From: Nemertoderma westbladi
Taxonomy: Eukaryota; Animalia; Xenacoelomorpha
Length of the DNA: 64,000 nt
Reading direction: 5' to 3'
Assembly: GCA_032718475.1 (NCBI GenBank)
Contig: JAUCBJ010005111.1
Span: 21,789-85,788, forward strand
The translations under genes were made by a program, and so were the position numbers. Below are positions 3,577 through 35,284 of the stretch, one piece after another (positions within the stretch are counted from its first letter, which is position 1; each line of letters begins with the position of its first letter). The notes below the pieces were generated by a model that was given only the letters and a program-made list of their open reading frames with translations, was not told the origin of the DNA and did no database searches.

Positions 3577-3654
3577 CCGCTCCCAGAAAATGGGATTTAA
3601 TTCTATAAAATATAAAAAATCACAGTTTCTAAAATATAAAAATACTCTAAACAG

Positions 3655-6648: not shown

Positions 6649-8637
6649 TTACGTTGGGGAGTCCCTAGATGTTTGTTGGATTAGGGAGGTGGTCGTGGGA
6701 AGAGTATCTTGCCTTCCATAGTTTCCGGACAGTTCTCGGTCTCGTTCCAGTAAACATAAACGACCAACTGGGCGATTGAGCTGCTGTGTCTCGAAGACAA
6801 TTCCAGGTTTCCTCTTCGTCCTGGAATATTGACGATAGAAACATCGCCTCAAATACACGACGGCCTTACAAAGCCGATTCCAGGATCTATAGTGGTCCAT
6901 CGCTCCCGGCAGGAGAGGTGAGAGTCCCGGCGAGACGTCTGGTGTTCCAGATCTCCAGTCTCTCTCTCTGATCTCCACAACAGATCGGTTCGCGGTGGGG
7001 GAGTTTAGATCCACAGCGTCATCCCTGGCAATGTGTAATACAGACAGATCTATCACGGGTTTAAATAACCTTGATTTACTCGTCCGGGTTTTAGGTTTGA
7101 CTTTCTCCGCTCCCTTGGCTTGTCTAATCTCAGCCGTGGTAAGATGGGGAGGCCATTCATCTTCTTTACTTAAGAAGTCGGGTCCACCTAACCAGTCTGG
7201 AGTATCTGTCAGTTCTTGAGGAGTTGCTCCTCTGGAAGCGATGTCGGCTAGATTAATCGTCTCGGGGCAATATCTCCATTGATCTACATTAGAGTTAATA
7301 TCGTCATTATCTGAGGAGTATGGTGTTCCCTCAGTTGGGTCGTCAACTTCACTGCTCTCCACTTCCCATTCACTTAATTGATATACTCGTTCTTTTGGTA
7401 ATCTTTCCATAAGAGTTCTACGGGAAGGGCCAGTAAAGTACCAACCTACTCTAGTTCTTCCCGCATAGGCTTGTAGTGGTTGCGGTTGAGCAGGCCGTTT
7501 CTCCAATGTCTCAAGCGCCTCATGCGCATTTTGGCCGATGAGTATTTGCACTCCAGGGTAGTCTGTGTTGAATCTAGGTATATTAAGCTGCTGGGTGGAA
7601 TCGTCCTCATCCCAGTTATAAGGTTCTACTTGGCTGGTAGCGAAGTTCTTTATCGCCACCATTTTTACTGACCTTATGCTGTGTTCTCCTAGTTCATCCT
7701 GGGGGGTGGACAACGCACCTACATAATAATCCGCTATTACTGTAGATTTCCAAACCTGCATAATTCCTGACATGTTTAACTTAGTTCGGAACTTGGGTTG
7801 TCCAGCAAAGATGTCTTCGGCTAGTTCTTTGACGATGAATGTTCCTGTGCTACCGGAGTCAAGGAGGGCGTTCACTGTATAACTCCTTTTAGGTCCGTGG
7901 ACCCTTAACTGCACTACGGGAAATTCTCGGATTCCTACATTGGAAGTTGGTGCTTTCCAAGATGGTTGTCGGTCAGAAGTAGTTAGGGGGAGCTCGCTGT
8001 CGGTGTCCTTTTCATACGTAAGTGCTCGATACACTGCGGTATTTATCAGGTAACAGGATTCGTTTTCGTCGGAGAATTCGTCCGTATAGAATCCTTCCAT
8101 CTCAGAACTTTGGTCAGTGTCGTTCACATCACTGAATTGGACATGTAGTTCGGACTCACTTACCTGACTCGGGCTGTTTCGATCGAATTCAGTGTGCAAC
8201 AAGATATGATGTTTTGCGCCGCACTTTGCACACCTTGCGTCGGAGTAACAGGTTTGCCGTTGGTGTCCTCGTCTGAGGCAATTATAACACAACCGCTTAT
8301 CCCACATGACTTCACGTCTATCCTTTAATGATTTCCTCATGAATTCATCACACGCACTTAAACGGTGGGGCCCGTCGCGCAGCACACATTTTGGTTTGAT
8401 GTTACTTACCTTACTCTGGGTAACGTTGTGCACACTCGTTCTTTCCTCGGGCTTTCTTACATGAATTCTCTTAGGAGACATAGGAGGAGTTTTTCTTACC
8501 TGTTCTCTCCTGTCATTGGTTCGAGACTTGAATTTACTTACGTCCTTAGGCGCTTTGTTGTCATAGTAAGATCTTTCAGTGTCTTTCCCGCTGTCTTCCT
8601 CTTGAGAAGCCTGGCTTTCGCCGTCGTCTGTAAACAC
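6649..8637 (-). CDS. E1 nucleocapsid knuckles + aspartic protease fused in frame to short RNaseH-end and integrase-end remnants
   Basis: CYNCLRRGHQRQTC, CAKCGAKHHILLH, ALLDSGST; then WRYCPETINLADIASRG...WLGGPDFL and RPVGRLCLLE. No YVDD and no integrase core. Confidence 0.85.
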   Translation of the reverse strand: MFTDDGESQASQEEDSGKDTERSYYDNKAPKDVSKFKSRTNDRREQVRKTPPMSPKRIHVRKPEERTSVHNVTQSKVSNIKPKCVLRDGPHRLSACDEFMRKSLKDRREVMWDKRLCYNCLRRGHQRQTCYSDARCAKCGAKHHILLHTEFDRNSPSQVSESELHVQFSDVNDTDQSSEMEGFYTDEFSDENESCYLINTAVYRALTYEKDTDSELPLTTSDRQPSWKAPTSNVGIREFPVVQLRVHGPKRSYTVNALLDSGSTGTFIVKELAEDIFAGQPKFRTKLNMSGIMQVWKSTVIADYYVGALSTPQDELGEHSIRSVKMVAIKNFATSQVEPYNWDEDDSTQQLNIPRFNTDYPGVQILIGQNAHEALETLEKRPAQPQPLQAYAGRTRVGWYFTGPSRRTLMERLPKERVYQLSEWEVESSEVDDPTEGTPYSSDNDDINSNVDQWRYCPETINLADIASRGATPQELTDTPDWLGGPDFLSKEDEWPPHLTTAEIRQAKGAEKVKPKTRTSKSRLFKPVIDLSVLHIARDDAVDLNSPTANRSVVEIRERDWRSGTPDVSPGLSPLLPGAMDHYRSWNRLCKAVVYLRRCFYRQYSRTKRKPGIVFETQQLNRPVGRLCLLERDRELSGNYGRQDTLPTTTSLIQQTSRDSPT

Positions 8638-10577
8638 ACTGGTATTACCCTTCTCCTAGAAATGGGTTTCTCACTTACCTTATTTTCCGGTGTCTTCTCT
8701 CTGGACTGCTTTAGGAGCTGTAATTTTACTTCTCCATCTAAGAATGACATGAGATCAGCCATGGTAGGGTCTCGTCTTTGATGTTCCATCATATATAACA
8801 CTTTCTTATCCCAGCATGTACCTACTCCACCCTTAGGTAAAGTAGACGCCACGGCTCCAATAACCATAGAACTCTGATATTCATGAGACTTACCTAGCCA
8901 ATCTAATTGTCTACAGATCTCCTGAATCTCATCGGAAAACTCTATAATCCCGCTGCTAATGAATTTTCGGGGCGCTACCAATTTTGCATACAAATACCTA
9001 GCTATGTTATTCCTATTACCATACCTGATGTTTAGGGTATCCCAAACTTGTCTTAATCCATCTGGATGTCCAATAAACTTTAACGCCATTAACTTGGGAG
9101 ATCCTTCCAAGCACTCGATGAGGAATCTAAGTTTCTCTCCGTTAGATAGCACAGAGTTCTGTATGTTATCTTTGTAATATTCATTAAAAGGTAACCATTT
9201 CATCTCATCTCCATTGAACTTGACGATCTCTCCCACCTTTACCGCTTGACGGGCTTCGGTTCTAGCCATTTGACGTGTAAAACTTTCTTGGGCCATCGTG
9301 TTATTTAATATCGAGTTATCGGTATATAAATTTCTCGGATTATGATCAGGTCTATATGGAATATCATTGTCAACAGGTTTATAATTACCCTTAATAGGGT
9401 TCACTTTAGGAGTTTCTACTTCACTAGCAGTATAGATGCGTGTAGGCTCCACACCTTGCGCATGAAATACTTCAGACCTAACAGGTTGACACATTGTTAC
9501 CGGGGTTGGTGGTATACCCCTTTGGATATTTACTAATTTGTCGCGTTCTAATGCGATACTCTGCTGCACCTCTTGCAACTCTAACCTACTTTCCCTCACT
9601 GTGCCATTGAACTGCTGAACAGTTCCTTCCATCTCCCGGACCTGCTGAGAGGAGCACTTGCGGTGTTCCCTCAACTGCCCGAGCAGGAGACCCATCTCCC
9701 GTCGTCCCTCATCTACCCACTCGACCGCCGAAGCGGGAGGCGCCAACGTAGTAGCGGGCGGACGAGGGACAACGGGCGACAAATCATTAATATTTCGCTC
9801 GGAGTCCAGGACATGAACATTTTCTGGGGTGGTTCTGTTGGGCACAGGTAGTTTCGTGCTGTGCAAAGGGAATTTAGAGGTAGGTTCTGGGAGTACAGGT
9901 GTCTCTATCACCGAAGGGGTGGCTTCGAGAACAGGCCTAATTATTTCAGGTTCATCTACTATAGTAGGGAGTCTTTCTAATCCAATAATTTGGTCTGTGG
10001 GTTCTGTACTACCTAAGTCTACACTATCCAGTTGCATTCTCGCCTCAGGAGGTAACGTCCGCTTGAGCATCCGTCTACGTCCGCTTGAACGAGATTTATT
10101 ACCTCTACCTTCGGGATCTCTCATATCACCTTCATCAGAGGAAGCAAATCCCTGTCTTCTGGAAGTATATCGACTCAGTAACCGCATCTGAGCTGCAACC
10201 ATAGCTGTCCTTTGTTTCTTCAAGTATTCTTGTTCCGCCTGAAGTTTTTCCAGCTCTAATTGGGTGGTCTCTTCAGATTCTCTTAGTTCTGCTTCTGCCA
10301 CTGCCGCTTTTCTTTCCGCTTCTATTGCTGCAGCTGCCGCTTTTCTTTCCACTTCTACTTGCTGTTGCTTTAATTGTCTATCCTTAACTAGCCTAGGGTC
10401 GTCTGACACTACTACTGAAGGGATGACCTTTCCTACAGTAGGGGACTTGGACTTTGGTCTGGGATGTTCTATACTTTGATCTTGGTCACAGATCCTTTCA
10501 AGACACTGTCCAAGTCTAAGACTCATTCTAACGCCTTCCAAAAGACTATCTGACAGTGCCCGTTTTGTGTCAGACAT
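8538..10577 (-). CDS. E1 Gag (coiled coil + BEL DUF1759-like region)
   Basis: 679-aa ORF with KFNGDEMKWLPF...EKLRFLIECLEG...W..L..RYG, typical of BEL/Pao Gag. Confidence 0.85.
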   Translation of the reverse strand: MSDTKRALSDSLLEGVRMSLRLGQCLERICDQDQSIEHPRPKSKSPTVGKVIPSVVVSDDPRLVKDRQLKQQQVEVERKAAAAAIEAERKAAVAEAELRESEETTQLELEKLQAEQEYLKKQRTAMVAAQMRLLSRYTSRRQGFASSDEGDMRDPEGRGNKSRSSGRRRMLKRTLPPEARMQLDSVDLGSTEPTDQIIGLERLPTIVDEPEIIRPVLEATPSVIETPVLPEPTSKFPLHSTKLPVPNRTTPENVHVLDSERNINDLSPVVPRPPATTLAPPASAVEWVDEGRREMGLLLGQLREHRKCSSQQVREMEGTVQQFNGTVRESRLELQEVQQSIALERDKLVNIQRGIPPTPVTMCQPVRSEVFHAQGVEPTRIYTASEVETPKVNPIKGNYKPVDNDIPYRPDHNPRNLYTDNSILNNTMAQESFTRQMARTEARQAVKVGEIVKFNGDEMKWLPFNEYYKDNIQNSVLSNGEKLRFLIECLEGSPKLMALKFIGHPDGLRQVWDTLNIRYGNRNNIARYLYAKLVAPRKFISSGIIEFSDEIQEICRQLDWLGKSHEYQSSMVIGAVASTLPKGGVGTCWDKKVLYMMEHQRRDPTMADLMSFLDGEVKLQLLKQSREKTPENKVSEKPISRRRVIPVCLQTTAKARLLKRKTAGKTLKDLTMTTKRLRT

Positions 10578-11908
10578 GTTTGTTTGTACAGTTGAATGCC
10601 TACTGCTATATTACAGTTAAAGCAAGTCTAGTAATTCAGTATCACCGTTAGCCTAGTAATTAATTACCGATACTGTTACTCAGTGTAACGTGATATATAT
10701 ATATAATATATTAGAATACCGGTATACACTTATAGTATATATATAAGTATTATTACAGACTAGGTTTGTCACAGAATACCGGTATATAATTTCAGCACAA
10801 CTATATATATTATATATAATAGGCCTATCGTGAATACCGGTATACAGCTTACACTTATAGTACATATAAGTATAATTATGGACTAGAATTAATTACAGAA
10901 TACCGGTATATAATTTCAGCGCAAATTTATAGAAATAAATATAATGAGCCTATCGTAAATACCGGTATGTCAATTATTTTAGAATAATTGAATTTCTGAA
11001 TTTTAGGGGTTACTTGGTTACTTTACTTTACTTGATTACCGTTATTTAAGCAGTAGTCCAACTGATATTAAGACCTAATGGTTGTAAGACAGGCCTACTA
11101 TTTTATAAATCGGTTTGAGTTGATTTATAATATATATACCCGTTTAATGGGTTTTTGTCAATATTTGAAATAAATGTTATTATTTCTGGGAAGAAGTCAC
11201 TGCACAGAAGCTGTATGCTCTCAGTGAAGTGCTACTTGTTGGACACTAAAACAAATAATTCTAATTTACCTAAGTTACTTAATACTACAAATTACTTACA
11301 ATTCGGGGTGAGATTACAATCTCTAAATAAACACAAAAATTACACGTACGAATTTTTAGGGTAATTTTACAAGAAGTCTACAAACCAGCCTAACAAAGGG
11401 TTAGAATATCTGGTTATTACAGACAGGATACTACGGTATTTGAAAATAACAAGCAGTAGTAAATATACTGCGTTGTCCAGATAGGAAAAAATACCACCGT
11501 CTGACGACTTATAGCCGTATCGCTATAAGTACTACGTTATGTATCACGGAGTGTTCCTACCTAGAAGTTAATTACCGCGGTCTACCAGAACCAACGTGCC
11601 TATTAACCACTTTACAACACAAATATACTGCCTACACACTAATTACTTTCGGAAAGCACTGTACACTAAACCCTAAATTAGGTACAAGTACTTATACAAC
11701 AAATAATCAGCAGTTAGAAATACTTGTACAGCTAAAAGAACCACGGTATCTGCTGGAGTGACTGGGGCACAAAATCACCAGTCTTTACCTACGCCAAGCA
11801 GCCCTGATGTAGTACCGGGGTTAATTTAACTATAACGTTATGTATAACAAGCACAATTACTGTAGGAATAAACTTGGGGATATGAATGTTGCGAATAAGC
11901 GCATAAAC

Positions 11909-12491
11909 TCTGAATAATAAATATTACGCTACGCGTACAGACTACTCAAACAAAATACAGACCAAACGCTGGCAGACTACTATCAAGCCCAAACAAACTA
12001 CAGTATATGCAGACTCCGAAATGGTTAGTTAGTATGCGTTCTAACCGAGTAGTATGACTTATTCTTTCGAGGGGATTTACCTCACAGCACTGGAAGCCCC
12101 TACGTTCCTAACTAGTATTTTATCGGACATACACTCTACACACACCGCAATCTCTTCAGACCTAACAACAGCCAGACAACAATCCAGCCTACAAATTATC
12201 TGAATAAGAAATATTACACTACCCGTACAGACTACACAAATAAATACAGACCAAATGCTGGCAGACTACTATCAAGCCCAAACAAACTACAGTATATGCA
12301 GACTCCGAAATGGTTAGTTAGTAAGCGTTCTAACCGAGTAGTACGACTTATTCTTTCGAGGGGATTTACCTCACAGCACTGGAAGCCCCTACGTTCCTAA
12401 CTGGTATTTTATCGGACATACACTCTACACACACTACAGTCTCTTCAGACTTAACAACAGTCAGACAACAGTCCAGCCTACAAATTATCTG
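11909..12491. repeat. Two tandem ~290-bp copies in the E1 5' leader
   Basis: tctgaataa.aaatattac at 11909 and 12199, with near-identical sequence following. Confidence 0.85.
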
Positions 12492-12825
12492 TACAATCTG
12501 GGCAGGCTTACACGTCTTCTGCTCAATATTAACCTACAAGTAAATAAAACTGACAGAAATAAGTAAAATCTCAATAAAAAACCAGGGCTGCAGTCCCTGA
12601 TTAATTATTAAGGCCTACCGGTATATAATCATCAAAATCGAATAATACTGCTGTACCTGTACTGCTGTAAGTACCGGTCCGGGTGGTTAGGTAGTCAGGC
12701 CTACTGGGTACCGGTTGACCGGTACTTCAGCTTTATTGCCTACTGCAATACAGAAGCAATAACTGTTATTGTTCTTACCAGAACAATATTAAACTGTATT
12801 TATTGCCTACACTGCAATCAGAATT

Positions 12826-12838
12826 GTATATCTGTTAT
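12826..12838 (-). promoter_or_regulatory. E1 primer-binding position, non-tRNA, complementary to its own LTR (13551-13563)
   Basis: Minus-strand ATAACAGATATAC abuts the LTR end. Its exact complement GTATATCTGTTAT lies in the LTR on the same strand. Confidence 0.65.
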
Positions 12839-14069
12839 TGTTCGCGCTTTCAGACCTTTAGCAGTTTAACCTGCCAAATTTGGATGTCTTCTAGATTGTA
12901 AATCGACTTTAGCCTATGACGAGTATTTGATACACTACATTAGCCGAAGCCAGTCTATGCGCGACCATTCACCCGCTGGATATACCCGGGAGACTGGATT
13001 CGGAAGCCTAACCTTATTGCGGTGTAGGCCTACTGTATTATTCGACTGATCGTAATATATAATCTCTGACAAATATTATTCACTTTCGGGAAATATTAAC
13101 AGTTCCTTTAGGACGTGGCGCTCTAAATATGTAAACAGAGTTATGACTTAAACTAGACACAACGGGATGGCTATGGATTCACGTATATAGCGCATTCTTT
13201 AGGAGATGCTTTGTTATCAGGCACAATCATACACACTACTGCACAATACTGCACACCGATCTGCCGACCTTCACTAATTTTAGTCACATATAAAGAGAAC
13301 AACAACCGACTGATGTAGTGCCTATGAAATAGCATTAGATTCACTCCAAAACCACTTTAATGTAAGTCGCAATTGTTATATGTAACCGGTCTCTCTTACC
13401 TTCAGTATATCAAGAAGATTGAGGGTTTTATAATTATTTATCGATATTCCAAATATAATAATATTCCATCAACTGATATAATGAATAACCGACAGTAAAT
13501 AGCAGTAAAATTGCGGTGTTTGTATTTGACAATATGATTAGGTGAGTGAGATAACAGATATACGTTTCTATGATTAAGCCTACTAATGTTGGGCTAAAGC
13601 CTGAAAAACACAGAGATTCCAAAGCCGGTCTTCTAGGCTCGGAAAAAACCAACACAACTGATCCCTCTGGGCTGTTGTAGGTATCTTTCAACTCAAAGAG
13701 AAACAGCTCTCATTGGCCGAGTTCCAGATTCTGTAGGTTCCACGAATGTCTAAATGCCGAACTATTCGGGTTTTTGCAGCCCATATTCAACACAAGGCGA
13801 AATCGCTCTGATTGGTGGATCATTGTTCTGATTGGTTGATCGAACAGAACAAAGAGCCTATAGGCGTACAGCAAATCGGTTGGCAGATTGCGTCATTTGA
13901 GTTAGGTAGTTTAGAGTATTTGAGCGCATTGTGGGAAAACTGGCTTTTTATGTCCGCTAAAGCACACATGCAGACACAGCGGATAAATCGCTAGTTATGT
14001 CCTCTAAAAACACCTTACACAGTACATTGCGGAGAAAAGGGCCAGTTATATCCCGCAAAAGCTTTTACA
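12839..14069 (-). repeat. E1 5' LTR
   Basis: Direct repeat of 2347-3576, TG...CA ends, flanked by TSD CCGAT. Confidence 0.95.
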
Positions 14070-15829: not shown

Positions 15830-17842
15830 GTGCCCACGAGACATTAGTTCCACGTGAAATTAGTGCCCACGTGATATTAGTGCCCGCTAGACATTAGTGC
15901 CCATGTAAAGTTAGTGCCCACGTGACATTAGTACCCGTTAGACATTAGTGCCCATGTAAAGTTAGTGCCCACGAGACATTAGTGCCCACGTGACATTAGT
16001 GCCCACGTGACATTTGGACCCACGTGACATTAGTGCCCTAGTGAAATTAGTGCCCACGTGACATTAGTGCCCGCGAGACATTAGTGCCCAAGTGATATTA
16101 TTGCCCGCGAGACATTAGTGCCCACGTGACAGTAGTGCCCACGTGACATTTGTACCCACGTGACATTAGTGCCCTAGTGAAATTAGTGCCCACGTGACAT
16201 TAGTGCCCGCGAGACATTAGTGCCCAAATGACATTAGTGCCAGCTAGACATTAGTGCCCGCTAGACAATAGTGCCCGCTGGACATTAGTACCCGCTAGAC
16301 ATTAGTGCCCACGTGGCATTAGTGCCCACGTGACATTAGTGCCCGCTAGACATTAGTGCCCGCGAGACATTAGTGCCTGCTAGACATTAGTGCCCGCTAG
16401 ACATTATTGCCCACCTGATGCTAGACATTAGTGCCCGCTAGACATTATTGCCCACGTGACATTAGTGCCCACATGTTATTAGTGCCCGCTAGACATTTGT
16501 GCCCGCGAGACATTAGTGCCCGCGAGACATTAGTGCCCACGTGACATTAGTGCCCACGTGAAATTAGTGCCCACGTGACATTAGTGCCCGCTAGACATTA
16601 ATGCCCGCGAGACATTAGTGCCCACGAGACATTAGTGCCACGTGAAATTAGTGCCCACGTGACATTGGTGCCCGCTAGACATTAGTGCCCACGTGAAGTT
16701 AGTGCCCAAGTGACATTAGTGCTCGCTAGACATTAGTGCACGCTAGATATTCTTGCCCACGAGACATTAGTGCCCACGTGAAATTAGTGCTCACGTGACA
16801 TTAGTGCCCGCTAGACATTAGTGCCCGCTATAGACATTAGTGCCCATGAGACATTAGTGCCCACGTGAAATTAGTGCCCACATGACATTAGTGCCCGCTA
16901 GACATTAGTGCCCGCTAAATATTAGTGCCCACGAGACATTAGTGCCCACGTGAAATTAGTGCTCACGTGGCATTAGTGCCCGCTAGACTTTAGTGCCCGC
17001 TAGACATTCGTGCCCACGTCAAATTAGTGCCCACGTGACATTAGTGCCCTCTAGACATTAGTGCCCGCGAGACATTAGTGCCAACGAGACATTAGTGCCC
17101 ACGTGAAATTAGTGCCCACGTGACATTAGTGCTCACTACACATTAGTGCCCACGTTAAATTAGTGCCCATGTGACATTGGTGCCCGCTAGCTAGACATTA
17201 GTGCCCGCTAGCTAGACATTAGTGCCCGCTAGCTAGACATTAGTGCCCGCTACACATTAGTGCCCACGTGAAATTAATGCCCACGTGACATTAGTGCCCG
17301 TTAGATAGACATTAGTGCCCGCTAGACATTAGTGCCCGCGAGACATTAGTGCCCGCGAGACATTAGTGCCCACGAGGCATTAGTGCCCACGTGAAATTAG
17401 TGCCCACGTGACATTAGTGCCCGCTAGGCATTAGTGCCCACGTGAAGTTAGTGCCCACGTGACATTAGTGCCTGCTAGGCATTAGCGCCCGCTAGATATT
17501 AGTGCCCACGAGACATTAGTGCCCACGTGAAATTAGTGCTCACGTGACGTTAGTGCCCGCTAGACATTAGTGCCCATGAGACATTAGTGCCCACGTGTCA
17601 TTAGTGCCCGCTAGACATTAGTGCCCGCTAGACATTAGTGCCCATGAGACATTAGTGCCCACGTGAAATTAGTGCCCACTCGACATTAGTGCCCGCTAGA
17701 CATTAGTGCCCATGTGAAATTAGTGCCCACTAGACATTAGTGCCCGCTAGACATTAGTGCCTGCTAGATATTAATGCCCACGAGACATTAGTGCCCACGT
17801 GAAATTAGTGCCCACGTGACATTAGTGCCCGCTAGACATTAG
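15830..17842. repeat. 15-bp satellite (GACATTAGTGCCC-acgt/gcta variants), left part
   Basis: Contiguous 15-mer array, interrupted by E2. Confidence 0.97.
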
Positions 17843-18493
17843 TGTAAGCGGATTCAATTCCGTTCATCTCCACCATAAAGTGGGACCAGTGGCATTTTAC
17901 CAACTAGTTGGCGATGCGAGATTACCAATAAATAATCTCTTCTCATAACCAACTCGGGGGGGGGGGGGGGGCGACACACGCCCTAAGCCACAGAGAGAGG
18001 TGAGAGGTCAAACCACCTCAGAGGGAAAACCCAGCTAGCGAGGCTAGCATTAGGGAGTAACACCTACAGGGAGTGCCGAAGTGACAATTAGTATATAAGC
18101 CAATAGCGGGCAGGGAAGCACGTGGGGGAGGATAGAAGGGCATCCAATGGGTATCAAAGGCCACAGTAATGTAGAGGTGAAACTAATATGTATCAATCAT
18201 ATATTTACTCTGATTACTGATTTACTGGTCAGTTCATTATTATGCAATAGTTTTGACCGTCATTTTATAGTCTTTGTAACTTATACTACGATTACTGTAT
18301 TGTTGCTGTGATCATTTATATTACAATCTATGTTGTTCATTAATCCGACTGTGCTATTATCGTTGAGATTAATACTCCCTATCCGATATTTTTCCCGACG
18401 GCCTTCGGCCAAAGATACCAGCCCAGCAGACCAGCAACTAAGTGATGCGTACAGCCTTACCCGGTCGGGATCATAGAACTCAATCCCGTCACA
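17843..18493 (+). repeat. E2 5' LTR
   Basis: Direct repeat of 28127-28767 with several indels. Confidence 0.93.
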
Positions 18494-18504
18494 GTCAAAA
18501 CTAT
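18494..18504 (+). promoter_or_regulatory. E2 primer-binding position, non-tRNA, complementary to its own LTR (18247-18257)
   Basis: GTCAAAACTAT directly after the LTR. ATAGTTTTGAC present in both LTRs. Confidence 0.6.
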
Positions 18505-18521
18505 CAACTCAACAACTGTGA

Positions 18522-20366
18522 TTGCAACCAAGAGAGAACGAGATGAGCGAACAGACGCCCCGAGAACCGGAGGGAGAAAGAACGCCACCGCAGACCCCGG
18601 ACGACACCAACCAAACGATCCGAGAGGCAGTGACGAGACGATACCGGCCCGCCACCCCGGATTCGCCAACGAGGGATGAACCGGATACCCAAGCGGAGGG
18701 TGGCCGACGACAACAGCGAGGGAAAGTCAACGACGATTCGATGCGGGATGACGACGGCGTCGGAGTACCGAAGTCGCTGGCCAGCCACAGGCCGAGGGCG
18801 ACGGATGGCCCACCGGAACGGCAACAGTGGGGCCGCCGGTACAACGCCGGACGAGGAGGGAAGGTAGAGTCAACGGGGAGGACGTCGGGACGAATGATCG
18901 CCTGCGACGGGCATACAACGCCATAAAGAAGCTACTAAAAGAGGCTAAGGAGGGGAGAAAGATAGAGCAGCCTATACTATACCAGAGGCTAGGTGAGTCT
19001 AACAAACATTTTCGTTATTTAGTCCGTTTTGGACAGGGAGAACTGGCAAGTGAGAGAGCGAGGGTCGCCACAGAACTGCTTGATTTGTGGCGGTCCAAGG
19101 TAATGGAACCAGACATAGTGTACATAGGGCCTTACTTAGTGGATGCCAGGGGAATTAAGTTAGTGGGATGGGCAGACGCACACGACGGCGAATCCGAGGT
19201 TAACCCCGAGGATTCGGTGTCGTCGGTTAGTAGGAACCCCAGTAAACGGGGGAAAATACGCCAGAGGGAGTTAATATTAATAGTACCGTAATAGATAACC
19301 GTAATCAAACCTTTCTTGCAGGAGATAATGTTTTACCCGGTAATAATAATTCTAATTTAAATGTGCATAATAATTTCAATAATTTGAAAGATAATGTAGG
19401 TAATAATAATACAATAAATAGTCCCGAAGAAATTAATCAGAATAATATCATTATTAACGGTGCAATTAATACAAACATAGGGGGAACAAGTGAGCCTGCC
19501 AATGAGAGCCTGCGAGGCTACACAGTTACGCAGGGAGGAGCAGGGGTGAATGGACCCAGTAACGAGAGCCTGCAAGGCTACGCAGTTGCGCAGGGAGGAG
19601 CGGGGGTGAATGAACCCACCGAGGGTAGAGATAATGCGTCGACTAGAGGGGGGCGTAGGGGCGAAGTATGAGGTGATGGATGGGGGGGGGGGGGCTACGG
19701 GCACGGGCACCCCACCAAGAGCGATTAGTGGCGAGGGGGGGGCTACGGGCACTCCACCAAGAGCGATTAGTGGCGAGAGGGGGGGGGGGGGCAGAGAATG
19801 TCCCACACGCGTCGGCAGATAGTACGCACAGTGAGTTGAGTGAACCGCGGCACCCGGCGATGGAGAATAGTAGGGGGATTGCGAATATCCCGAAGACATT
19901 ACAACCGGGCGGAGAGAGAGACGTTGACGCCGTGAGCGGGCGAGCGAGAAAACGTTGAGCCCATTCGGAAGATGGAAAAAGAAGAGTGGAGTTTATCCGG
20001 GAGGTCGAAGCGAGGTCCTCCCGGGAGAAGAAATGTGCGGAGCCAGGGCTAGAGGAGATGTCGAACTTCCTTAACTACGACGTGGAATTGATTACAGACC
20101 CAGTCTACAGCGAGGACAGTTTGGGAAGGGCGCTGAAAGCTGAATACAACAGGCCTAAACCCGAACACAGGGCGGCGAATGCACTACCAAAATTAAGACA
20201 GTCACTACCGTACGCAGCGACACAAGGGACTACAAGTCCACAGACAGCTGGGAGTAGGACCACACCATGGCAAGGGCAGAAACAAAACAACAACATGAAC
20301 AAATACAATCCCAACACGCCCAGTAGGCCGACTCTAAACAACCAAAACACTAAGCGTGATACGTGA
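18522..20366 (+). pseudogene. E2 gag region, frameshifted and partly deleted
   Basis: Series of plus-strand ORF fragments between the 5' LTR and the knuckle/protease ORF, including VNPEDSVSSV and DPVYS motifs and short tandem repeats. Confidence 0.6.
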
Positions 20367-23300
20367 AGGGCTATACAAGGAGGGCTGCAATCCAAAATAC
20401 AAATGCCAATTACACAAAAACGCGTTCCACAAGACCATGAACTGCAAGCATTGGCAGGCATTGCTTAAACAAGATAGGGTAGCCTACGCGGGTGCAAATG
20501 GACTATGTCAACGGTGCGTGGTAGGAGGACACAGAATCGAAGAATGTAGAGAAACACCAACAAAACAGGTAGATGGAAGTAGGGGCCAGACAATGGCGAC
20601 AAGCACCACAGGAGCGAAGAGAAGGGGAACGGTACTACTTGGGGTGGTGCCAGTGAGGATAATAGGAGAGAGCGGGCGGTCGGTCATGACGTTAATGTTG
20701 GTCGACAGCAGGGCGGCCTTCATGCTAGTGAAAAATTGGGTGGCCAAGGAGATAGGGTTGCAGACGAGGCCAAGCAAGATGGCGGTAACTACTACCTCGA
20801 GTAAGGACGAGGTCTTGGAGATGAGAACGGGACGTTGTGAAATATCAGCGATAGCACCAGGGTGCGATTATGGGGCGACTATCGACCCCATCCACATAAT
20901 AGAATCGATTAATATAAACGCCAGGCAACCCACAAGGATCGAGGTCGAGCAATACCGGTTCCTGGACGAAATCAATTTCTCAGTACCTGAATTGGATGTC
21001 TCAAAGGTATCTCTCATAGTCGGCATGGACTGCCCGACGGCGCCCGAGAGACTACAGACCCTATTCGGAGGGGATAGAGAACGAGATCCGATGGCGATTC
21101 TTACGCCATTCAGATGGACACTTAGCGGCCCAATCAAGACCAAAATCCCATTCAGCATGTCAGAATCCTCAGGGTGCATGTTCACGGGCACAATTAGGGA
21201 GATGGAGGATGAAAGAACAGAGGAGCAACTTAAGCGGCTGCTGCGGCAGGACTTCGAGGGATTAAAGGAGACTGGGGTCGGGACCTCGGTGGAGGACAAA
21301 CAGGCGCTGGAGAGCGTGAAGAACTCGATGAAGTGTGAAGGGGGGCGGTATACGATAGGGATGGTGTGGAAACAACCAAAGTTACCGCTACCGGACAATA
21401 AAGGGATGGTCCTGACGAGGCTTCGAAAACTGAAGCAGACGCTCAGACGGAGCCCCGAGAAGGATGAGTACATCCATAGAACGATTAAGAAATACAAGTA
21501 TAAAGGGTGGGCCGTGGAGTTACCGGTCGACGAACCAAACATGGACAGGACCTACTATTTGCCATTGCATGTGGCTTTCAACCCTAAAAGGGTAAACTGC
21601 GGATGGTGGTCGATGCATCGACCAAAATGAACGGCAAGAGTTTGAATGATTATCTGCTGGAAGGCCCCAACATCTACAACTCGGCGATAGAGGTCCTGTT
21701 GAGATTCAGAAATGGAAGGCACGCCTTCACGTGCGACATTGAAGGCATGTTCAACCAAGTCCGTGTGACGGAGGAAGACAGCGATAGTCAGCGCTTCCTA
21801 TGGTACAATGGAAAAGGTGCTAGGGATCATGTGGAACCGAGAGACAGACGAGCTGGAGTATCAACTAAGTCAGGAGGGCGCCGAAATTCATACCAAACGA
21901 GGCTATGTATCGTACATAGCAAGGATATATGATCCCCTAGGCCTAGCATCCCCATTGTTAGTTACGGGGAAGCAAATACTGTAGTAAGTGTATAAGTTGA
22001 AGGATGATTGGGATTCGGAGGTCCTGGAGGAAATAAGTAGACAGTGGAACAAGTGGACGGGGAGCCTTGAGCTGATGGGGATGTACAGCATGCCACGCGT
22101 GTACTTCCCGGATGGAGACATGACCGATCTGGACCTTCATATGTTTTCCGATGCATCCTTGGAAGCATATGGAGCGGTACTTTATTTGGTACAGCGGAAG
22201 GGGGCTCATAAGCCCAGGCTTGCGTTTAGTAAAGCGAAGTCAACACCACCAGATTCAGCATCAGTGCCGAAACTCGAACTAACGGCTGCGAGGTTAGTAG
22301 TAAGGGCGACAGCATACATGATGGACACCATACCCAACATAGTGGAGACATACTACTGGACGGACTCCATGGTAGTGTTAGGATGGCTACACAATAAGAA
22401 GACTCGATACCCTATATTTGTCGCGAACAGGGTAGACGAGATAAGAGCAACGACCGAGCTGGAAAAGTGGCACTACTGCCCAACTGACGACAACCCAGCA
22501 GATCTGTTATCGAGGGGCGTTGTACGCCATGCTTTCTCGAGAATGCAGGAGTTGTGGCAGCATGGGCCACATTTTCGGCCTGGCCACTAATGAGGAAGGT
22601 GGACCCAGGTACGGAGGAAGTAGCAGTAGAAGAGGAGGGAGAGGATTCGGAAGGGGAAGATATATACAGCCAATTGGCGAGGGAGATTAAGGAGGTGCCA
22701 CCGAAACCGAGAGAACCATGCGATAATCCAACGGATAGGCTGCTCAGTTACAGCTCCAGCTGGTACAAGACCAAGAAGTTGGTAGCATATTTGAGGGCCT
22801 ACGTGGATTTCCTCAGGGGAGTTGGTAAGGATACCAAAACGAGACCCATTATCGATCTGGAAGGGGTGGCCAAAGCCGTGATACGATACGAGCAAAGGAA
22901 GGGGTACGCGGATGAAGTGAACAGAGTCAGCAAGCAACAGCGCCTTTGTCAAGACAGCGAACTCAACCCGCTCTCTCCGCAACTGAACGATGATGGGATC
23001 CTGGTGATGAATTCCAGAGTGGTAAACAACAATAGCCCAGTCATTCCACCCAAACCCATATTAATCCCCAATAAATCACCAATAGTCTACCATATCATAT
23101 GGGATTCCCATAAATCGATACTACATGGAGGTACCAATCAGACCCTGACGGAGATACGAAAGACGTTCTGGGTTATCCAACTCAGGAAGATGGTAAAGGC
23201 GGTAGTGGGGCAGTGCCAGACCTGCCGACGGACGAGGAAGGAGAGGGCCATACAGGAGATGGCGCCATTACCGGCCAACAGGGTGAGGCATCACAGCCTG

Positions 23301-24219
23301 CCATTTACACACTGCGGCGTGGACATGTTCGGGCCGATAAAGATAAAAGTAATGCGGCATACAGAGAAACGCTACGGCATTATCTTTGTCTGCAATAACA
23401 CGAGAGCGGTGGGAATAGAACATGCACAGGACGCTACGGAGTCGGCATTTATCAATGCCTTTAGAGAGGTTTGTATCCCGCAGGGGAGGGATGGTAAAGG
23501 TGTTATATTCAGACAACGAGGCCAACTTAATGGGCGCGGAGAACGAGTTGGCCAAGGCTCTCGACATCCTAGAAGGTGAGGATATCAGGGCAGCGATGAG
23601 GAAGCATCTCATAAAGTGGGAGAGGAGAATGCTGTACACGCCACATACATTAGGGTGTGTGGAGTGGCTTGTGGGAAGCTCAAAACGCCTGATGACCATA
23701 CTGATGAACAACCATATGGTCACTGAAGACGTATTTTGAACAGTGTTAGCCAAGTGTGAGGGGATCATTAACAGCCGACCGTTATATCCCGAGAACGACG
23801 ACCCAGAATCGCTGGAAGTCCTAACACCGGCTCATTTACTCATGGAGAGGCCGGTGACGATTGACATGCGGAGCGTAGATCCAGACGACATACATTCACG
23901 TCAAAGCTGGAAAGTTGCCAAGGCAATAAGTGCGGAGTATTGGACGAGATGGATAGAAGAGTATCTTCCAACACTACATAGGAGGAGCAAATGGAGGAAT
24001 ACTAGCAGAGAACTGAAGAAGGGTGACTTGGTGATTGTCACAGACGACACAATTATCAATAACCAATGGAGACTAGCCAGGGTAGTAGACACCTACCCCG
24101 ACGAGGACGGAAGTATTAGGTCGGTGGAAGTGAGGATTGGAGGAAAGATAGGGGCCAAAGATGGGAAGACCTACAGGAGGGTGGTAGGAAAGTGTTGCCT
24201 ATTGGAAGGGTCGCCTTAG
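20356..24219 (+). pseudogene. E2 pol: knuckles, protease, truncated RT, RNase H, integrase
   Basis: CQRCVVGGHRIEEC; LVDSRA; CDIEGMFNQV...RFLW (YVDD region deleted); FSDAS, YWTDS, WHYCPTDDNPAD; H..H..CQTC, GVDMFGP, SDN, INSRPL. Multiple stops and frameshifts. Confidence 0.93.
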
Positions 24220-24319
24220 AGTTTAGTTGTCCAATATATTGGACTGAATGAGGGCGAGACACCCTTCCCACACATAAAACATAAGAAATAAATAAACAAA
24301 TTAATAAAAAATAAGTAGT

Positions 24320-24760
24320 AATAGTAGTAGTAGGTAGTACATAGTAGTAAGGTACATAGCGAGTACCATAGAACCTGTGGGCACTGAGGGCGCCACGTAG
24401 TGAGTGGAATTGAAGGGTATGTACCCTATGCATACTATAGTAGTAGTAGTAGGGTACATAGTACCGTAGAAGTTGTGGGCACTGATGGCGCCATGTAAGG
24501 AAGTAACGGGTATGTACGCATACCATAGTAGTAGTAGTAGGGTACATAGTACCGTAGAAGTTGTGGGCACTGATGGCGCCACGTAAGTAGTAAAGGGTAT
24601 GTACACATACCATAGTAGTAGTAGTAGGGTACATAGTACTGTAGAAGTTGTGGGCACTGATGGTGCCACGTAAGGAAGTAAAGGGTATGTACACATACCA
24701 TAGTAGTAGTAGTAGGGTACATAGTACCATAAAAGTTGTGGGCACTGAGGGCGCCACGAA
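24320..24760. repeat. ~88-bp tandem repeat (about 5 copies) between E2 pol and ORF3
   Basis: Unit catagtagtagtagtagggtacatagtaccgtagaagttgtgggcactgatggcgccacgtaag... repeated. Confidence 0.9.
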
Positions 24761-25090
24761 GGGAAGAGGGGGGCACATGGGTACAGCAGGACAGACCGTG
24801 TAGGCCGCATGAAACAGTTGTTAATAGCACAGGGAGAGGGAATATAAATAATATTAGAAATTAAAATTAATAAATTATAGCAACTAGAGGGAGGGAGTTC
24901 TAGAATCATAATTAAAGTAACTGACAAAATTTGCAATTTAGGAAAAAATTGGCACTTTGGGGAGTATATTATTTGGAAAATATACAAAGAAATTATAATC
25001 TAGGACGTAGGCCATTACTGAACGGAACATAGAACATCTTGTTTAACGGCACTCACTCAAATTGAGCCTTTGTAAGGCCCCAACAATTAG

Positions 25091-27390
25091 GTGAGCACGG
25101 GAAAGTTTGTGATGGCGGAGAGGTTAGTAAAGAAGAGAAAGGCGGAGAAGACTGGAAAGGAGTTACTAGTGGACTTCACGCAGAGGCATCCGGAGGAGAA
25201 GACGAGAGGATACTACAAACTGCAACAAAGGGTCACAAAGCGCACACACTACAGGACCAGTTTAGGGAGATGCACGAGAGATGACTGGTCAGGACCTACG
25301 GGACGCCGTCGTTAGACAACACGATCCTCGAGCATTTCTGCTATGTAGTAAAGGGAGACGAGGCGAAGTTTGGGATACCGAAGTATCCGAGGGAACCACC
25401 GAGGAAGGAGTGGAGGAGGTTTGTGGAGTCCGTGAGCAGGGGCAGGTACATTGTCCTAGATGATGAAGGGACTGTGGAGGACGATGAGGGCTCGAGAAGA
25501 GGGTCGGCGGGATCGTCCAGAACTATACTACTGCATTTGGCAGCGCCAAACGGAGATATTTTTCTATTCGATCTGGGGACCTACGGGAAGAAGAGCGGGC
25601 CGAAGTTGAACCGGTTGCCGAGGGCGGTGCAGGACCTAGTGAGACAGAAGACTACAGTTAAGGTGGGATCGGCGATCCGCGACGATGCGGACAGGATAAT
25701 CGGACCGGAGACCCCAATCTCCTGGACATGCAAGTGGTCTATATGGCTATGATGGGGCCAGAGAAATTGGGATTAGTAGAGAACCCGGGACATTGTGGAG
25801 CCGTGGCGATGGGCCAACTGATGGGGCTCGTCTGCCACAAGCCGATGGACTGGGGCAAGTTCCGAGAGGAGTACGGAGCAGAACTTGCGAACTTGCTGAA
25901 ATGGGGAGCGAGGCCAGGGAAGCAGGAGATATATCAGTTCCTAAGGGGAGCGATAAAGATATATCAGAAGAGATATATCTTACAGGAGGATTGGATAATG
26001 ATAGGTTTATTAAACCTATTCATGGCCGTGGTTTTCGGAAGAGAGCCAACGGCGTTTCTACTATCAGGAGCACCTCTAAATCACAGGAGAGCAATCATCA
26101 GGATTGCAAGCGATGCCCATACCATGGGGCTCCGAGGGCGATTTTGGAAGGAAGAGATGGAGGGAGCTGGAAGGGTGGCAAGTCATGGGTGGAAACCAAG
26201 GTGGAAAGGGACATAGTGGATCTACCGGGCTACTGGGTTCGGGTCCACTCCCGGCGAGAGAGGAGGATGATGACGAGTTCGGGGTGATGCCACTGATTGA
26301 GAGAATTGCGGCCCCAGCGGGGGACGAGGGGGAGGACAAGTTCGGCGTAATGCCGCCGATTGCGAGGATCGGCCACTCAGATACGGACTGGGGTGGCGGG
26401 AGAGTGGTGAGCGGGGCAAGAGCCTTCTGGGACAAACCCGGTAAGCGGACCTGGGAGCACAGGGAGCCAGCGATGGATTTCGCGGCAAGTTCGATCAGGT
26501 TGGGCGAGCTACCGGGAACGGCACCACGAGTAGTGTTTGGGGAGACGATGCCGAGGGTGGAGGAAGACGTCGACATGGGTAGGGACCACAGCATCCAGAT
26601 GTTTGCTTATCAGCGGCTCCATAGACCCAGGAGACCACACGGGGCCAAGGATGACTTGGGGCGGGACGCACTGATACACGGCTGTGATTACTGTGGGAGG
26701 CTAACCCACCAGGAAAGGAGCTGCCTGTATCGATTCCAGAAGGGGACGAGCTGTCTCTACTGCCGTGAGTCGACCCATAGGATGGGTGCATGTCCAAGGC
26801 TGCACAACCGATGCTCAAAGTGTAACTTTCGAGGGCACTTTGGGCGCCAGTGCGATTGGATGGACGACGAAGAGAAGTTTAGGATCTTCGAGGAGTGGGC
26901 CGACGTCGGTGTCATGACAGGGCAGAGGATAAAGGCCCAGGAGTTCCGGTGGGGCTTCTTTAATATCAACCTGGGAGCCGACCAGGATATTATTAAGAGG
27001 AGACTGCCATTCACATATCAGGAGGTAGCGACAGCGGCATCATATGGAGGAGTCATTAACACTCAGATATACTTAGATAGATGGTCGCCAGAAAATAGGG
27101 TCGAGTTCAGGGACTTTCTCGCAGAGCATGTGCCGCGGGCGATGAAAATGATCCTGTGGGACGCTACCAGGGGGAAACAGGAGGGACACTCGGAGGGACC
27201 ACCCGCAAAGCGATACAGGGAGTTGATAACACCTGCGCCCAAAGAACCAACGACGGGGCTTAGCAAAACGGTATCGGCAAGGATGAGGAGTCTGCAGGAG
27301 GATAAGCCGGAGGGAAGGAAACGGCCCAGACAAGATGACGATTGGGGCAAAGATCTCAGATGGTTCCCGAAGGCGGGAGGAGCGAACTAG
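25091..27390 (+). pseudogene. E2 accessory ORF3: DEDDy-type 3'-5' exonuclease + three CCHC zinc knuckles (frameshifted)
   Basis: YIVLDDEG; LHLAAPNGDIFLFDL; LPRAVQDLVRQKTTVKVGSAIRDD; YQKRYILQE; CDYCGRLTHQERSC, CLYCRESTHRMGAC, CSKCNFRGHFGRQC. Confidence 0.8.
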
Positions 27391-28126
27391 AACTCAGGGA
27401 CATAGGTGTGGGTGTGCCTGGAAGGCACCACATGTAGGAAAGAGTATGAACTCCAAAGTGCAAATAATCAAGTGCAATTGGTGTGTATGTATGTAAAATA
27501 ATTTATCAATAACCAAATATATATATATAATCAATGTAAGTACTATAGTCATATATTACCTTTTTCCAACTAGCTACTGGGACTGGGGACCAATTAACTA
27601 TGACAGGAGGACGAGACATTAGACGGATCACGCTTCCTGAGTGCGACGGCACAAAAGAGAACGTGAGGCTTGTCAGGGGCGAGTGAAGTAAAAATGGGTT
27701 GAGTACAGGGGAATCGGGGGAAGTACAGAGAGGGTGCGTAGAGGTGTGAGGAAGTGAAAGGAGTGCAATTCAAGTGTGGGGAGCGAGCAGTGAGGGAGGA
27801 TGAGTCCCAAGGGACTGGAGAGAGAAGAAGGGACAGCAAGGTCCGTGAGGAAGATTTGAGTAAGGTTAAAGGAAAATTGTGTGGAGAGTGAGCACAATGG
27901 TCTCAAATAGAGACACCAGATACTTCGGTGCAACATAGCTCGCGATTGCACCAAGGATGGGTGGTAATAACACACCCAGGGGGGGTGGGGGGGGGGGGTC
28001 TGGAAAGCCGACCCCGAGAAAAGAACTCCACCCCACACCCAATATTAGATTGGGTTCCAGCGGAATTGAAGCACACTTAAGGTTGATGCTATCTTCTCAC
28101 CGGGAAGATAGCATGGGGGGGGGGAG

Positions 28127-28767
28127 TGTAAGCGGATTCAATTCCCTTCATCTCCACCCTAAAGTGGGACAAGTGGCATTTTACCAACATGGCGTTGGCG
28201 ATGCGAGATTACCAATAAATAATCTCGCCTCATAACCAACTCGGGGGGGGGGGGGGCGACACACGCCCTGCCCTAAGCCACAGAGAGAGGTGAGAGGTCA
28301 AACCACCTCAGAGGGAAAACCCAGCTAGCGAGGCTAGCATCAGGGAGTAACACCTACAGGGAGTGCCGAAGTGACAATTAGTATATAAGCCAATAGCGGG
28401 CAGGGAAGCACGTGGGGAAAGATAGGAAAGCATCCATTGGGTATCACAAAGGCCACAGTAATGTAGAGGTGAAACTAATATGTATCAATCATATAGTTAA
28501 TCTGATTACTGATTTACCGGTCAGTTGATTATCACATAGTTGCGGACTGGCATAGTTTTGACCGTCATTTTATATGGTAAATTACAATTACTGTACTGTT
28601 GCTGTGATTATTTATATTACAATCTATGTTGTTCATTAATCCGACTGTGCTATTATCGCTGAGATTAATACCGAGAAATCGGCCAAAGATACCAGCCCAG
28701 CAGACCAGCAACTAAGTGACGCGTACAGCCTTACCCGGTCGGGATCATAGAACTCAATCCCATCACA
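28127..28767 (+). repeat. E2 3' LTR
   Basis: Follows the poly-G PPT and ends ...TCACA before TSD ATTAG. Confidence 0.93.
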
Positions 28768-31700
28768 ATTAGTGCCCGCTAGATATTAGTGCCCACGAGA
28801 CATTAGTGCCCACGTGAAATTAGTGCTCACGTGACATTAGTGCCCACTATACATTAGTGCCTGCTAGACATTAGTGCCCATGAGACATTAGTGCCCACGT
28901 GAAATTAGTGCCCACATGACATTAGTGCCCGCTAGACATTAGTGCCCGCTAGACATTAGTGCCCACGTGAAATTAGTGCCCACATGACATTAGTGCCCGC
29001 GAGACATTAGTGCCAACGCGACATTAGTGCCCACGTGAAATTAGTGCCCACGTGACATTAGTGCCCACTACACATTAGTGCCCACGTGAAATTAGTGCCC
29101 ACGTGACATTAGTGCCCGCTAACTAGACATTAGTGCCCGCTACACATTAGTGCCCACGTGAAATTAATGCCCACGTGACATTAGTGCCCGTTAGATAGAC
29201 ATTAGTGCCCGCTACACATTAGTGCCCACGAGACATTAGTGCCGGCGAGACATAAGTGCCCACGAGGCATTAGTGCCCAAGTGAAATCAGAGCCCACGTG
29301 ACATTAGTGCCCGCTAGACATTAGTGGCCGCTAGAAATTAGTGCCCATGAGACATTAGTGCCCATGTGTCATTAGTGCCCGCTAGACATTAGTGCCCACT
29401 AGACATTAGTGCCCATTCGACATTAGTGCCCAGGTGAAATTAAGTGCCCACGTTACATTAGTGCCCGCTAGACATTAGTGCCCGCTAGATATTAGTGCCC
29501 ACGAGACATTAGTGCCCACGTGAAATTAGTGCCCACGTGACATTAGTGCCCGCTAGACATTAGTGCCCGCGATACATTAGTGCCAACGAGACATTAGTGC
29601 CCACGTGAAATTAGTGCCCACGTGACATTAGTGCCCGCTACACATTAGTGCCCACGTGAAATTAGTGCCCACGTGACATTAGTGCCCGATAGCTAGACAT
29701 TAGTGCCCGCTAGATATTAGTGCCCACGAGACATTAGTGCCCACGTGAAATTAGTGCTCACGTGACATTAGTGCCCGCTAGACATTAGTGGCCGCCAGAC
29801 ATTAGTGCCCATGAGACATTCGTGCCCATGTGTCGTTAGTGCCCGCTAGACATTAGTGCCCATTAGACAATAGTGCCCACGTGAAATTAGTGCTCACGTG
29901 ACATTAGTGCCAGCTAGACATTAGTGCCCGCTAGACATGAGTGCCCATGAGACATTAGTGCCCACGTGTCATTAGTTCGCGCTAGACATTACTGCCCATT
30001 AGACATTAGTGCCCATGTGTCATGAGTGCCCGCTAGACATTAGTGCCCACGAAACATTAGTGCCCATGAGACTTTAGTCCCCACGTGTCATTAGTGCCCG
30101 CTAGGCATTAGTGCCCATGAGGCATTAGTGCTAGTGCCCACGTGTCATTAGTGCCCGCTAGACATTAGTGCCCATGAGTCATTAGTTCCCACGTGTCATT
30201 TGTGCCCACCAGACATTAGTGCCCGCGAGACATAGGTGCCCATGAGACTTTAATGCCCACATGACATTAGTGCCCGTAGACATTAGTGCCCGTTAGACAT
30301 TAGTGCCCATGAGACATTAGTGCCCACGTGTCATTCGTGCCCGTAGACATTAGTGCCCGTTAGACATTAGTGCCCATGAGACATTAGTGCCCACGTGTCA
30401 TTCGTGCCCACTTGAAATTAGTGCTCACGTGACATTAGTGCCCGCTATACATTAGTGCCTGCTAGACATTAGTGCCCATGAGACATTAGTGCCCACGTGA
30501 AATTAGTGCCCACATGACATTAGTGCCCGCTAGACATTAGTGCCCGCTAGACATTAGTGCCCACGTGAAATTAGTGCCCACGTGACATTAGTGCCCGCTA
30601 GACATTAGTGCCCGCGAGACATTAGTGCCAACGCGACATTAGTGCCCACGTGAAATTAGTGCCCACGTGACATTAGTGCCCGCTACACATTAGTGCCCAC
30701 GTGAAATTAGTGCCCGCTAACTAGACATTAGTGCCCGCTACACATTAGTGCCCACGTGAAATTAATGCCCACGTGACATTAGTGCCCGTTAGATAGACAT
30801 TAGTGCCCGCTACACATTAGTGCCCACGAGACATTAGTGCCCGCGAGACATTAGTGCCCACGAGGCATTAGTGCCCAAGTGAAATCAGAGCCCACGTGAC
30901 ATTAGTGCCCGCTAGACATTAGTGGCCGCTAGAAATTAGTGCCCATGAGACATTAGTGCCCATGTGTCATTAGTGCCCGCTAGACATTAGTGCCCACTAG
31001 ACATTAGTGCCCATTCGACATTAGTGCCCACGTGAAATTAAGTGCCCACGTTACATTAGTGCCCGCTAGACATTAGTGCCCGCTAGATATTACTGCCCAC
31101 GAGACATTAGTGCCCACGTGAAATTAGTGCCCACGTGACATTAGTGCCCGCTAGACATTAGTGCCCGCGATACATTAGTGCCAACGAGACATTAGTGCCC
31201 ACGTGAAATTAGTGCCCACGTGACATTAGCGCCCGCTACACATTAGTGCCCACGTGAAATTAGTGCCCACGTGACATTAGTGCCCGATAGCTAGACATTA
31301 GTGCCCGCTAGATATTAGTGCCCACGAGACATTAGTGCCCACGTGAAATTAGTGCTCACGTGACATTAGTGCCCGCTAGACATTAGTGGCCGCCAGACAT
31401 TAGTGCCCATGAGACATTCGTGCCCATGTGTCGTTAGTGCCCGCTAGTCATTAGTGCCCGCTAGACATTAGTGCCCATTAGACAATAGTGCCCACGTGAA
31501 ATTAGTGCTCACGTGACATTAGTGCCAGCTAGACATTAGTGCCCGCTAGACATGAGTGCCCATGAGATATTAGTGCCCACGTGTCATTAGTTCGCGCTAG
31601 ACATTAGTGCCCATGAGACATTAGTGCCCATGTGTCATTAGTGCCCGCTAGACATTAGTGCCCACGAAACATTAGTGCCCATGAGACTTTAGTCCCCACG

Positions 31701-34861: not shown

Positions 34862-35284
34862 GGAAGTGCAAAAAATACTGAATATTATACAAAGAGTTTA
34901 ATGTCAGAACAGCACATTTGCTTTTATTATTCTGTAAAAAAATTAATGAATATAATTATAATATTATATATATATTTATTAAGACTTATTGTGATACTAA
35001 TTATGGGTAATGAAAAAACAAGATGGAGAGTTTTAAACGCTCAGCTAAATAATAATTAATATTCTAGAATAAAGACAACAAAACATCAGAATTATAGCGA
35101 TTTACGTCCCTGAATTTCCACATTAGTATTTTGATAATATCTTTACCAATTTTTGGTTAAATTTAAAACGGCTTTCAGATTCTGAATCTACAGACGAAGG
35201 CGCTTCGAATGATATCTAGACTACATTTCAAAGACGTAAAATAAAGTCTACCGAGGTGGTTAAACATTGCTAAATAGACATTTT

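Follow-up and report, generated by a model that had tools for sequence, protein, structure and literature searches.

A candidate self-priming site in a BEL/Pao retrotransposon of Nemertoderma westbladi, complementary to the element's own LTR

Priming of reverse transcription by an element's own RNA is listed, in excerpts of the literature, for the Tf1/sushi group, Tcn1 and the TAR lineage of copia elements (PMC6317226, PMC6934838, PMC3601003, PMC5443660). In Tf1 the RNA's initial 11 bases pair with the primer site, and the RNase H cut falls between bases 11 and 12 (PMC7175516, PMC5341516, both in excerpt). As far as these excerpts go, Tf1 and Tf2 of Schizosaccharomyces pombe, the Tf1/sushi elements and the Tcn1 chromoviruses resemble the element described here, termed E2, in having no tRNA site, in having 11 nt past the 5' LTR that are complementary to R, and in a pairing that stops where DNA synthesis must begin. 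For the TAR lineage of plant Ty1/copia elements (Houba, Osr-1) self-priming has been predicted from a complement of at least 10 nt located 0-5 nt past the LTR, and the anchored 10-nt criterion that we applied to E2 is the one used in that prediction (PMC6317226, in excerpt). BEL/Pao elements are described in the ICTV profile as having an 18-nt site for tRNA-Arg or tRNA-Gly, and their replication is termed poorly understood (PMC8742986). A search of titles and the first part of abstracts found no self-priming BEL/Pao element, with subscription papers, Repbase, GyDB and supplements lying outside its scope, so that an earlier remark may exist. Term look-up in the text parts obtained likewise found no discussion of the primer site in PMC554778, PMC3118150 and PMC6238403, and generic mentions only in PMC8220671. 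By analogy with the Tf1 group we regard the feature of E2 as real, and as a likely BEL/Pao version of the known self-priming mechanism in a group that has hitherto been tRNA-primed by description.

The window, which is the whole 64,000-nt stretch of Nemertoderma westbladi DNA that was analyzed, contains E2 at 17843-28767 as a decayed BEL/Pao LTR retrotransposon flanked by the target duplication ATTAG (17838-17842 and 28768-28772). On the plus strand, as are all features of E2 given here, it has a 5' LTR of 651 nt (17843-18493) and a 3' LTR of 641 nt (28127-28767), both of the form TG...CA, with the CA end of the 5' LTR at 18492-18493 and a polypurine tract at 28115-28126; the 3' LTR has the longer R type that is also carried by most family copies. 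The two LTRs are alike at 577 of 620 ungapped columns (93%), by which measure E2 is an old, degraded copy. The gag-pol region (18752-24219) is in pieces with stops and frameshifts, and includes RT pieces near 21480-21930, a Pao RNase H region (PF05380) at 21988-22590, and the integrase PF17921 together with DUF5641 (PF18701) at 22488-24219. Past the integrase there is an extra ORF, also in pieces (25285-27390), with an exonuclease-like part and a Cys/His-rich part. The presence of PF05380, PF17921 and PF18701 in E2, and of PF05380 in all 26 homologues found for it, indicates that E2 is a BEL/Pao LTR retrotransposon. Specifically, E2 shares with the Belpaoviridae (genus Semotivirus) the TG...CA LTRs, the 5-bp target duplication, the polypurine tract and a Pao-type pol in the order RT-RH-IN, in which the Pao RNase H region is present and the integrase follows RT with DUF5641. 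In contrast to the Belpaoviridae as described, E2 lacks the 18-nt tRNA site, which is present in controls such as locus L009, and both E2 and a second BEL/Pao element of the window, E3, have an extra ORF that does not look like env. Since the Belpaoviridae are delimited by pol phylogeny, the tRNA site belongs to their description and is not a delimiting trait. Classification of E2 as a Tf1/sushi chromovirus was ruled out, as its domains are those of BEL/Pao and not those of a Ty3/gypsy chromovirus pol. The E2 insertion splits a 17-bp satellite found at 15830-17844 and 28768-32473.

The first-pass annotation had noted an 11-nt complement to the LTR directly past the E2 5' LTR, and this match is exact. 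The sequence GTCAAAACTAT, which begins with GTCAA, occupies the candidate primer-binding position 18494-18504 from the first base past the LTR end, and is the reverse complement of 11 nt at 18247-18257 and of their 3'-LTR copy at 28552-28562. These 11 nt, called the arm below, are the predicted 3' part of a self-primer, and their 3' base is paired to the nucleotide directly past the LTR, which is the orientation that priming needs. A complement of at least 10 nt to the element's own R directly past the LTR, as seen here, is one criterion for a Tf1-type mechanism. Primer sites of the tRNA type are expected to start with TGG, and no such start was found at 18494-18504; Rfam gave nothing credible at 17800-18700 (one match, 18.8 bits against a cut-off of 70) and ARAGORN called no tRNA anywhere in the 64-kb window. 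How often such a complement arises by chance had been left to shuffling, and an anchored complement of at least 11 nt was obtained in 1 of 5000 dinucleotide shuffles with either LTR, or in 4 and 1 of 5000 for the two LTRs when a spacer of 0-3 nt was allowed. The same anchored test slid across the window scored at 226 of 126,620 positions, many of them inside repeats.

A second case in the window is found in E1, a BEL/Pao derivative on the minus strand (2347-14069) with the target duplication ATCGG and LTRs that are 99% alike, from which E1 is judged to be young. It retains gag, protease-like and RNase H remnants, and a search for RT and integrase gave no match. The candidate primer-binding position of E1 (12826-12838, minus strand) has a 13-nt anchored complement, found in 1 of 5000 shuffles, its arm at 13551-13563 (minus strand) being complementary to 12838-12826. 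The geometry of E1 and E2 had been called identical. This is the case in that both sites start exactly at the LTR end, and the arm is contiguous in both elements, but the loop between arm and site is 236 nt in E2 versus 712 nt in E1 and the nearest upstream TCAGTT is 18 nt from the arm in E2 versus 98 nt in E1. The 712-nt loop of E1 contains donor-like and acceptor-like words.

The initiator-like word TCAGTT is present, as claimed, at 18229-18234 and again at 28521 in the 3' LTR, and the sole canonical TATA word of the LTR, TATATAA (18092-18098; 28382 in the 3' LTR), is located 137 nt upstream of it. The primer may start either at TCAGTT at 18229 or about 30 nt past the TATA word at 18092, and we give TCAGTT slightly less than an even chance of being the transcript start. 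The start position matters, since the predicted pairing of arm and site in E2 has a probability of 0.6-0.88 for an RNA starting at 18231, 0.19 from a start at 18120 and 0 from the LTR start; the E1 value likewise varies with the RNA start (0.81 or 0.03). An imperfect extension of the pairing to about 35 nt, into the leader at 18505-18528 where other copies differ, does exist with the 3'-LTR version of R, but only there, and is marginal relative to shuffles (p 0.01-0.13). Among 3000 shuffles, 131 and 88 had a duplex energy as good as its -26.8 kcal/mol, versus 2084 and 1753 of 3000 for the 5'-LTR version of R. Its alignment score was reached by 55 of 5000 shuffles in a window chosen post hoc and by 656 of 5000 in a neutral 60-nt window, and was equalled by 23 of 529 other anchors. 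A corresponding extension is absent from E1, where 599 and 524 of 3000 shuffles (energy) and 2814 of 5000 (alignment) did as well. Tf1-type self-priming reportedly also involves a U5 stem-loop next to the duplex, according to the title of Lin and Levin 1998. Folding of the last 45 nt of 19 LTR ends gave no U5 stem-loop beyond chance (z -2.0 to +1.15), a possible difference from Tf1, and a U5 hairpin predicted in E2 was no better than shuffles in this 45-nt fold.

We examined whether other copies of the family retain both arms using three DNA runs from two samples, in which contigs are short and the two arms lie on separate molecules. Read depth falls more than tenfold at 18241, from 2381-4627 to 87-218, because most E2 copies carry the long R type. 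The loose ends of at least three contigs, from both samples, pass through an arm that is intact, and the short R type is found unchanged in one 85-nt contig. On the site side, at least nine contigs run from the LTR end into 18500-18508 and then rejoin near the gag start, and at least four contigs keep 18494-18503 and then diverge. This retention of the site followed by divergence indicates, within the reach of contigs too short to link both arms, that the E2 primer site is a family trait and that the leader past it is variable; a minority of copies may carry a tRNA site. Joint conservation of the arms had been proposed as a check, and both are kept in other copies, on short separate contigs; a family tRNA site that was deleted from this particular copy, which would have spoken for the opposite, was not seen among the listed family contigs. 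In run X2, two contigs leave the leader after 18494-18497; their short ends, apparently complementary to a part of R further in, may be a variant site or chance flank.

Relatives of E2 were fetched with an alignment of the RNase H region, yielding 80 metagenome loci and nine loci in bacterial genome bins (L081-L089); the latter are BEL/Pao contigs that are most likely mis-binned animal host DNA. A search of viral contigs for E2 relatives found none. Among the 63 testable relatives, defined by at least 150 nt upstream of the gag match, we applied a strict rule in which a site right after ACA has 11 complementary nt that are contiguous or joined across a GT-AG intron. This rule was passed by 17 of the 63 loci, compared with 0-3 loci per shuffle in 20 shuffles and with 3 loci when the wrong strand was used. 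One pass (L085) is spurious, coming from a long inverted repeat, and there is redundancy among others (L037/39/40/48, L041/43/47 and L028/32). L018, L021, L042, L061 and L035 were missed by the rule and added by eye, and many of the 46 failing loci lack the needed part of the LTR or an identifiable end. A looser intron search had given false positives (L009, L033, L084, L085 and L086), among them a 13-nt match inside gag of the tRNA-primed L033, and was replaced by the strict rule with its controls. The site of L042 follows the LTR after a 4-nt spacer. In the 5' regions of L036 and L058, contiguous complements of 10-11 nt were seen by eye 3-4 nt past the apparent LTR end.

Site and arm change together across these distant relatives. 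Specifically, there are 12 different 11-mers, E1 and E2 included, each of which matches its own LTR, and a swap matrix gave 11 nt in 14 of 165 foreign pairs, all of them between families with the same 11-mer. Most sites begin with GT(A/C/G)AA, as does the GTCAA of E2. In 16 of 17 rows the duplex is not extended by the base past the arm, so that pairing ends at the boundary, and L016 differs from L018 and L082 at the 11th position on both sides. The earlier idea that the transcript folds onto its own primer site is thus strengthened as regards the arms, which are kept in the family and co-vary in relatives, but not as regards the marginal 35-nt extension. Loci L009, L010, L023, L033, L067 and L075 have sites whose patterns are of the tRNA type; they form a separate clade together with insect-derived proteins and all fail the strict rule. 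E2 and E3 group together (SH-aLRT 96) in a tree of a hand-picked set of 52, where their long branch falls outside both the self-complementary and the tRNA-type clades; an earlier tree had dropped 6 of 117 rows for low coverage. Since identity to the self-complementary group is only 32-37% and E2 sits on its own branch with E3, the mechanism of the relatives is carried over to E2 by analogy.

In 11 related families a GT-AG intron splits the arm, such that the 11-14 nt complement exists only across the splice junction. The LTR arm alone provides 5-9 nt in these relatives and is preceded by a pyrimidine-rich stretch and YAG, with the GT donor 107-426 nt upstream of the arm, and the exon upstream of the intron contributes just 3-7 nt of pairing. 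Only 12 of 432 GT sites give a complement of at least 11 nt. When donors were ranked from intron positions alone, the arm-completing GT came first in 7 of 11 loci and ranked 3, 3, 4 and 16 in the rest, a ranking that is not fully blind since the loci had been pre-selected by a donor-filtering search. The junction itself is seen in an intronless sister, L035 (from DNA or RNA), which lacks exactly the intron of L037. In L049 the 3' LTR is contiguous where the 5' LTR has the acceptor, and its relative L052 has the donor, while L042 has two identical LTRs with a target duplication and the intron in both. The small contribution of 3-7 nt from the upstream exon makes it probable that, unlike in Tf1, the RNA begins upstream of the arm. 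No canonical GT-AG intron was found inside the arm of E2 itself.

Taken by analogy with Tf1, these patterns make it likely that E2 primes reverse transcription with its own RNA and not with a tRNA. The R-region arm of E2 would anneal to the site past the LTR, and a cut in the RNA right past the arm, made in Tf1 by RNase H, would leave a 3' end that primes the minus strand into U5. During plus-strand synthesis the primer would next serve as the template for the site, cycle after cycle, which would keep arm and site complementary and explain the perfect matches, and occasional read-through could account for the longer weak match of E2. In the intron-bearing relatives, host splicing would assemble the primer from the split arm. 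The cut, and with it the end of the strong-stop DNA, would fall downstream of the splice junction, so that the 3' repeat could supply the intron anew as long as its own copy escapes splicing. More broadly, we somewhat favor a scenario in which a wide animal BEL/Pao branch swapped tRNA priming for self-priming, with the spliceosome of many families building the primer by removal of an LTR intron that survives because the spliced piece is the discarded primer, and with E1 and E2 as contiguous-arm members.

Several other readings bear on the same observations. Priming in trans, the chief alternative under the self-priming idea but in our view unlikely, would use a short LTR transcript as the primer, spliced where there is an intron and ended at a poly(A) signal past the arm, and unspliced genomic RNA as the template, with the tail trimmed by RNase H or else by a 3'-5' exonuclease, for which the extra ORF found in E2 and E3 is a candidate. 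AATAAA or ATTAAA does occur 6-34 nt past the arm in 10 of 14 relatives, and an unspliced template simply explains the intron in both LTRs of L042; however, E2 has no poly(A) word past its arm and that of E1 is 190 nt away. The exonuclease call is a lead only, as the resemblance of the extra ORF to 3'-5' exonucleases (atlas score 0.91, 154-157 shared features) is not matched by any Pfam or PDB hit, its predicted model (pLDDT 39.6) is too poor for a fold search, and the intact L042, at about 7 kb, has little room for such an ORF past the integrase. Distinctly unlikely is an intron, present or past, in E2 itself, in which splicing from a GA donor at 28426 to an AG within the arm would produce a complement of 12 nt, in a transcript starting about 30 nt past the TATA word. 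No other GT, GC or GA in either LTR yields 10 nt or more. The word at 28426 reads GAAAGC, one letter off the GTAAGC donors of L037 and L042; GGGA precedes it, as at the exon ends in several relatives, and TATATAA is 44 nt upstream. Yet GA is a non-canonical donor, 11 nt are available without any splicing of the arm, a match of 5 nt is nothing unusual among dozens of sites (estimated at about 8%), and in the 130-nt stretch T makes up 29% and pyrimidine 45% ahead of the AG, compared with 38-51% and 55-77% in all 11 real introns. This donor-like word in the 3' LTR is possibly an intron relic.

That a host RNA, either a tRNA half or another small RNA, binds the site and that the LTR complement is incidental seems very improbable to us. 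Half-tRNA priming exists in copia lineages (PMC6317226, in excerpt) and the GT(A/C/G)AA start is common to most sites, but a host RNA is at odds with 12 different sites that each match their own and not foreign LTRs, and with the Rfam result at 17800-18700. The old and degraded state of E2, together with the loss by deletion of the site of E3 in the same window, could suggest chance or a rearrangement that removed a tRNA site from this one copy. This reading is largely refuted by the shuffle tests of E2 and E1, the family copies, and the strict rule and swap test in relatives, which leave it a nearly negligible probability. Self-priming of E2, as the preferred reading, would still depart from the described systems. 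The Tf1 group is Ty3/gypsy and E2 is BEL/Pao; the Tf1 primer consists of the initial 11 nt of the RNA, whereas the arm of E2, 16-29 nt past the candidate start, probably does not, and in relatives of E2 the arm sits downstream of a longer exon and is in many cases split by an intron. The TAR lineage belongs to another superfamily and kingdom, and the excerpt of PMC6317226 does not mention an intron in the arm. If self-priming in E2 is true, all three LTR-retrotransposon superfamilies would have self-primed members, which bears on whether tRNA priming or self-priming came first. A splice-made primer would moreover tie transposition to host RNA processing, and would explain how an intron persists in sequence that passes through RNA. 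Annotation tools that require a tRNA site would miss or down-grade such elements.

The remaining element of this class in the window, E3 (37332-54690), is a BEL/Pao element with LTRs of more than 2 kb and the target duplication TATAC, whose 5' LTR end is deleted along with the primer site. Its extra ORF past the integrase (49049-51514) is weakly similar to that of E2. The two may share an exonuclease-like domain with a D-x-E motif plus Cys/His knuckles, an assignment that is a lead only, and the layout is common to two unnamed proteins, P0027 and P0028; homologue searches gave none in one case and four weak matches in another. E3 also has a further ORF at 47770-49092, a 12-bp tandem repeat in its pol region at about 44830-45230, and a stretch of the LTR at about 37460-37545 that by eye is tRNA-like and resembles a SINE head, with no ARAGORN call. 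Elsewhere in the window, an ORF with an fn3_4 domain (PF16794) is located at 56267-57121, for which a homologue search found none, and an RT ORF (PF00078) lies upstream of E1 at 864-1733. Finally, an element with long terminal inverted repeats at 33565-36363, containing an ORF at 34076-34861, is probably a DNA transposon.
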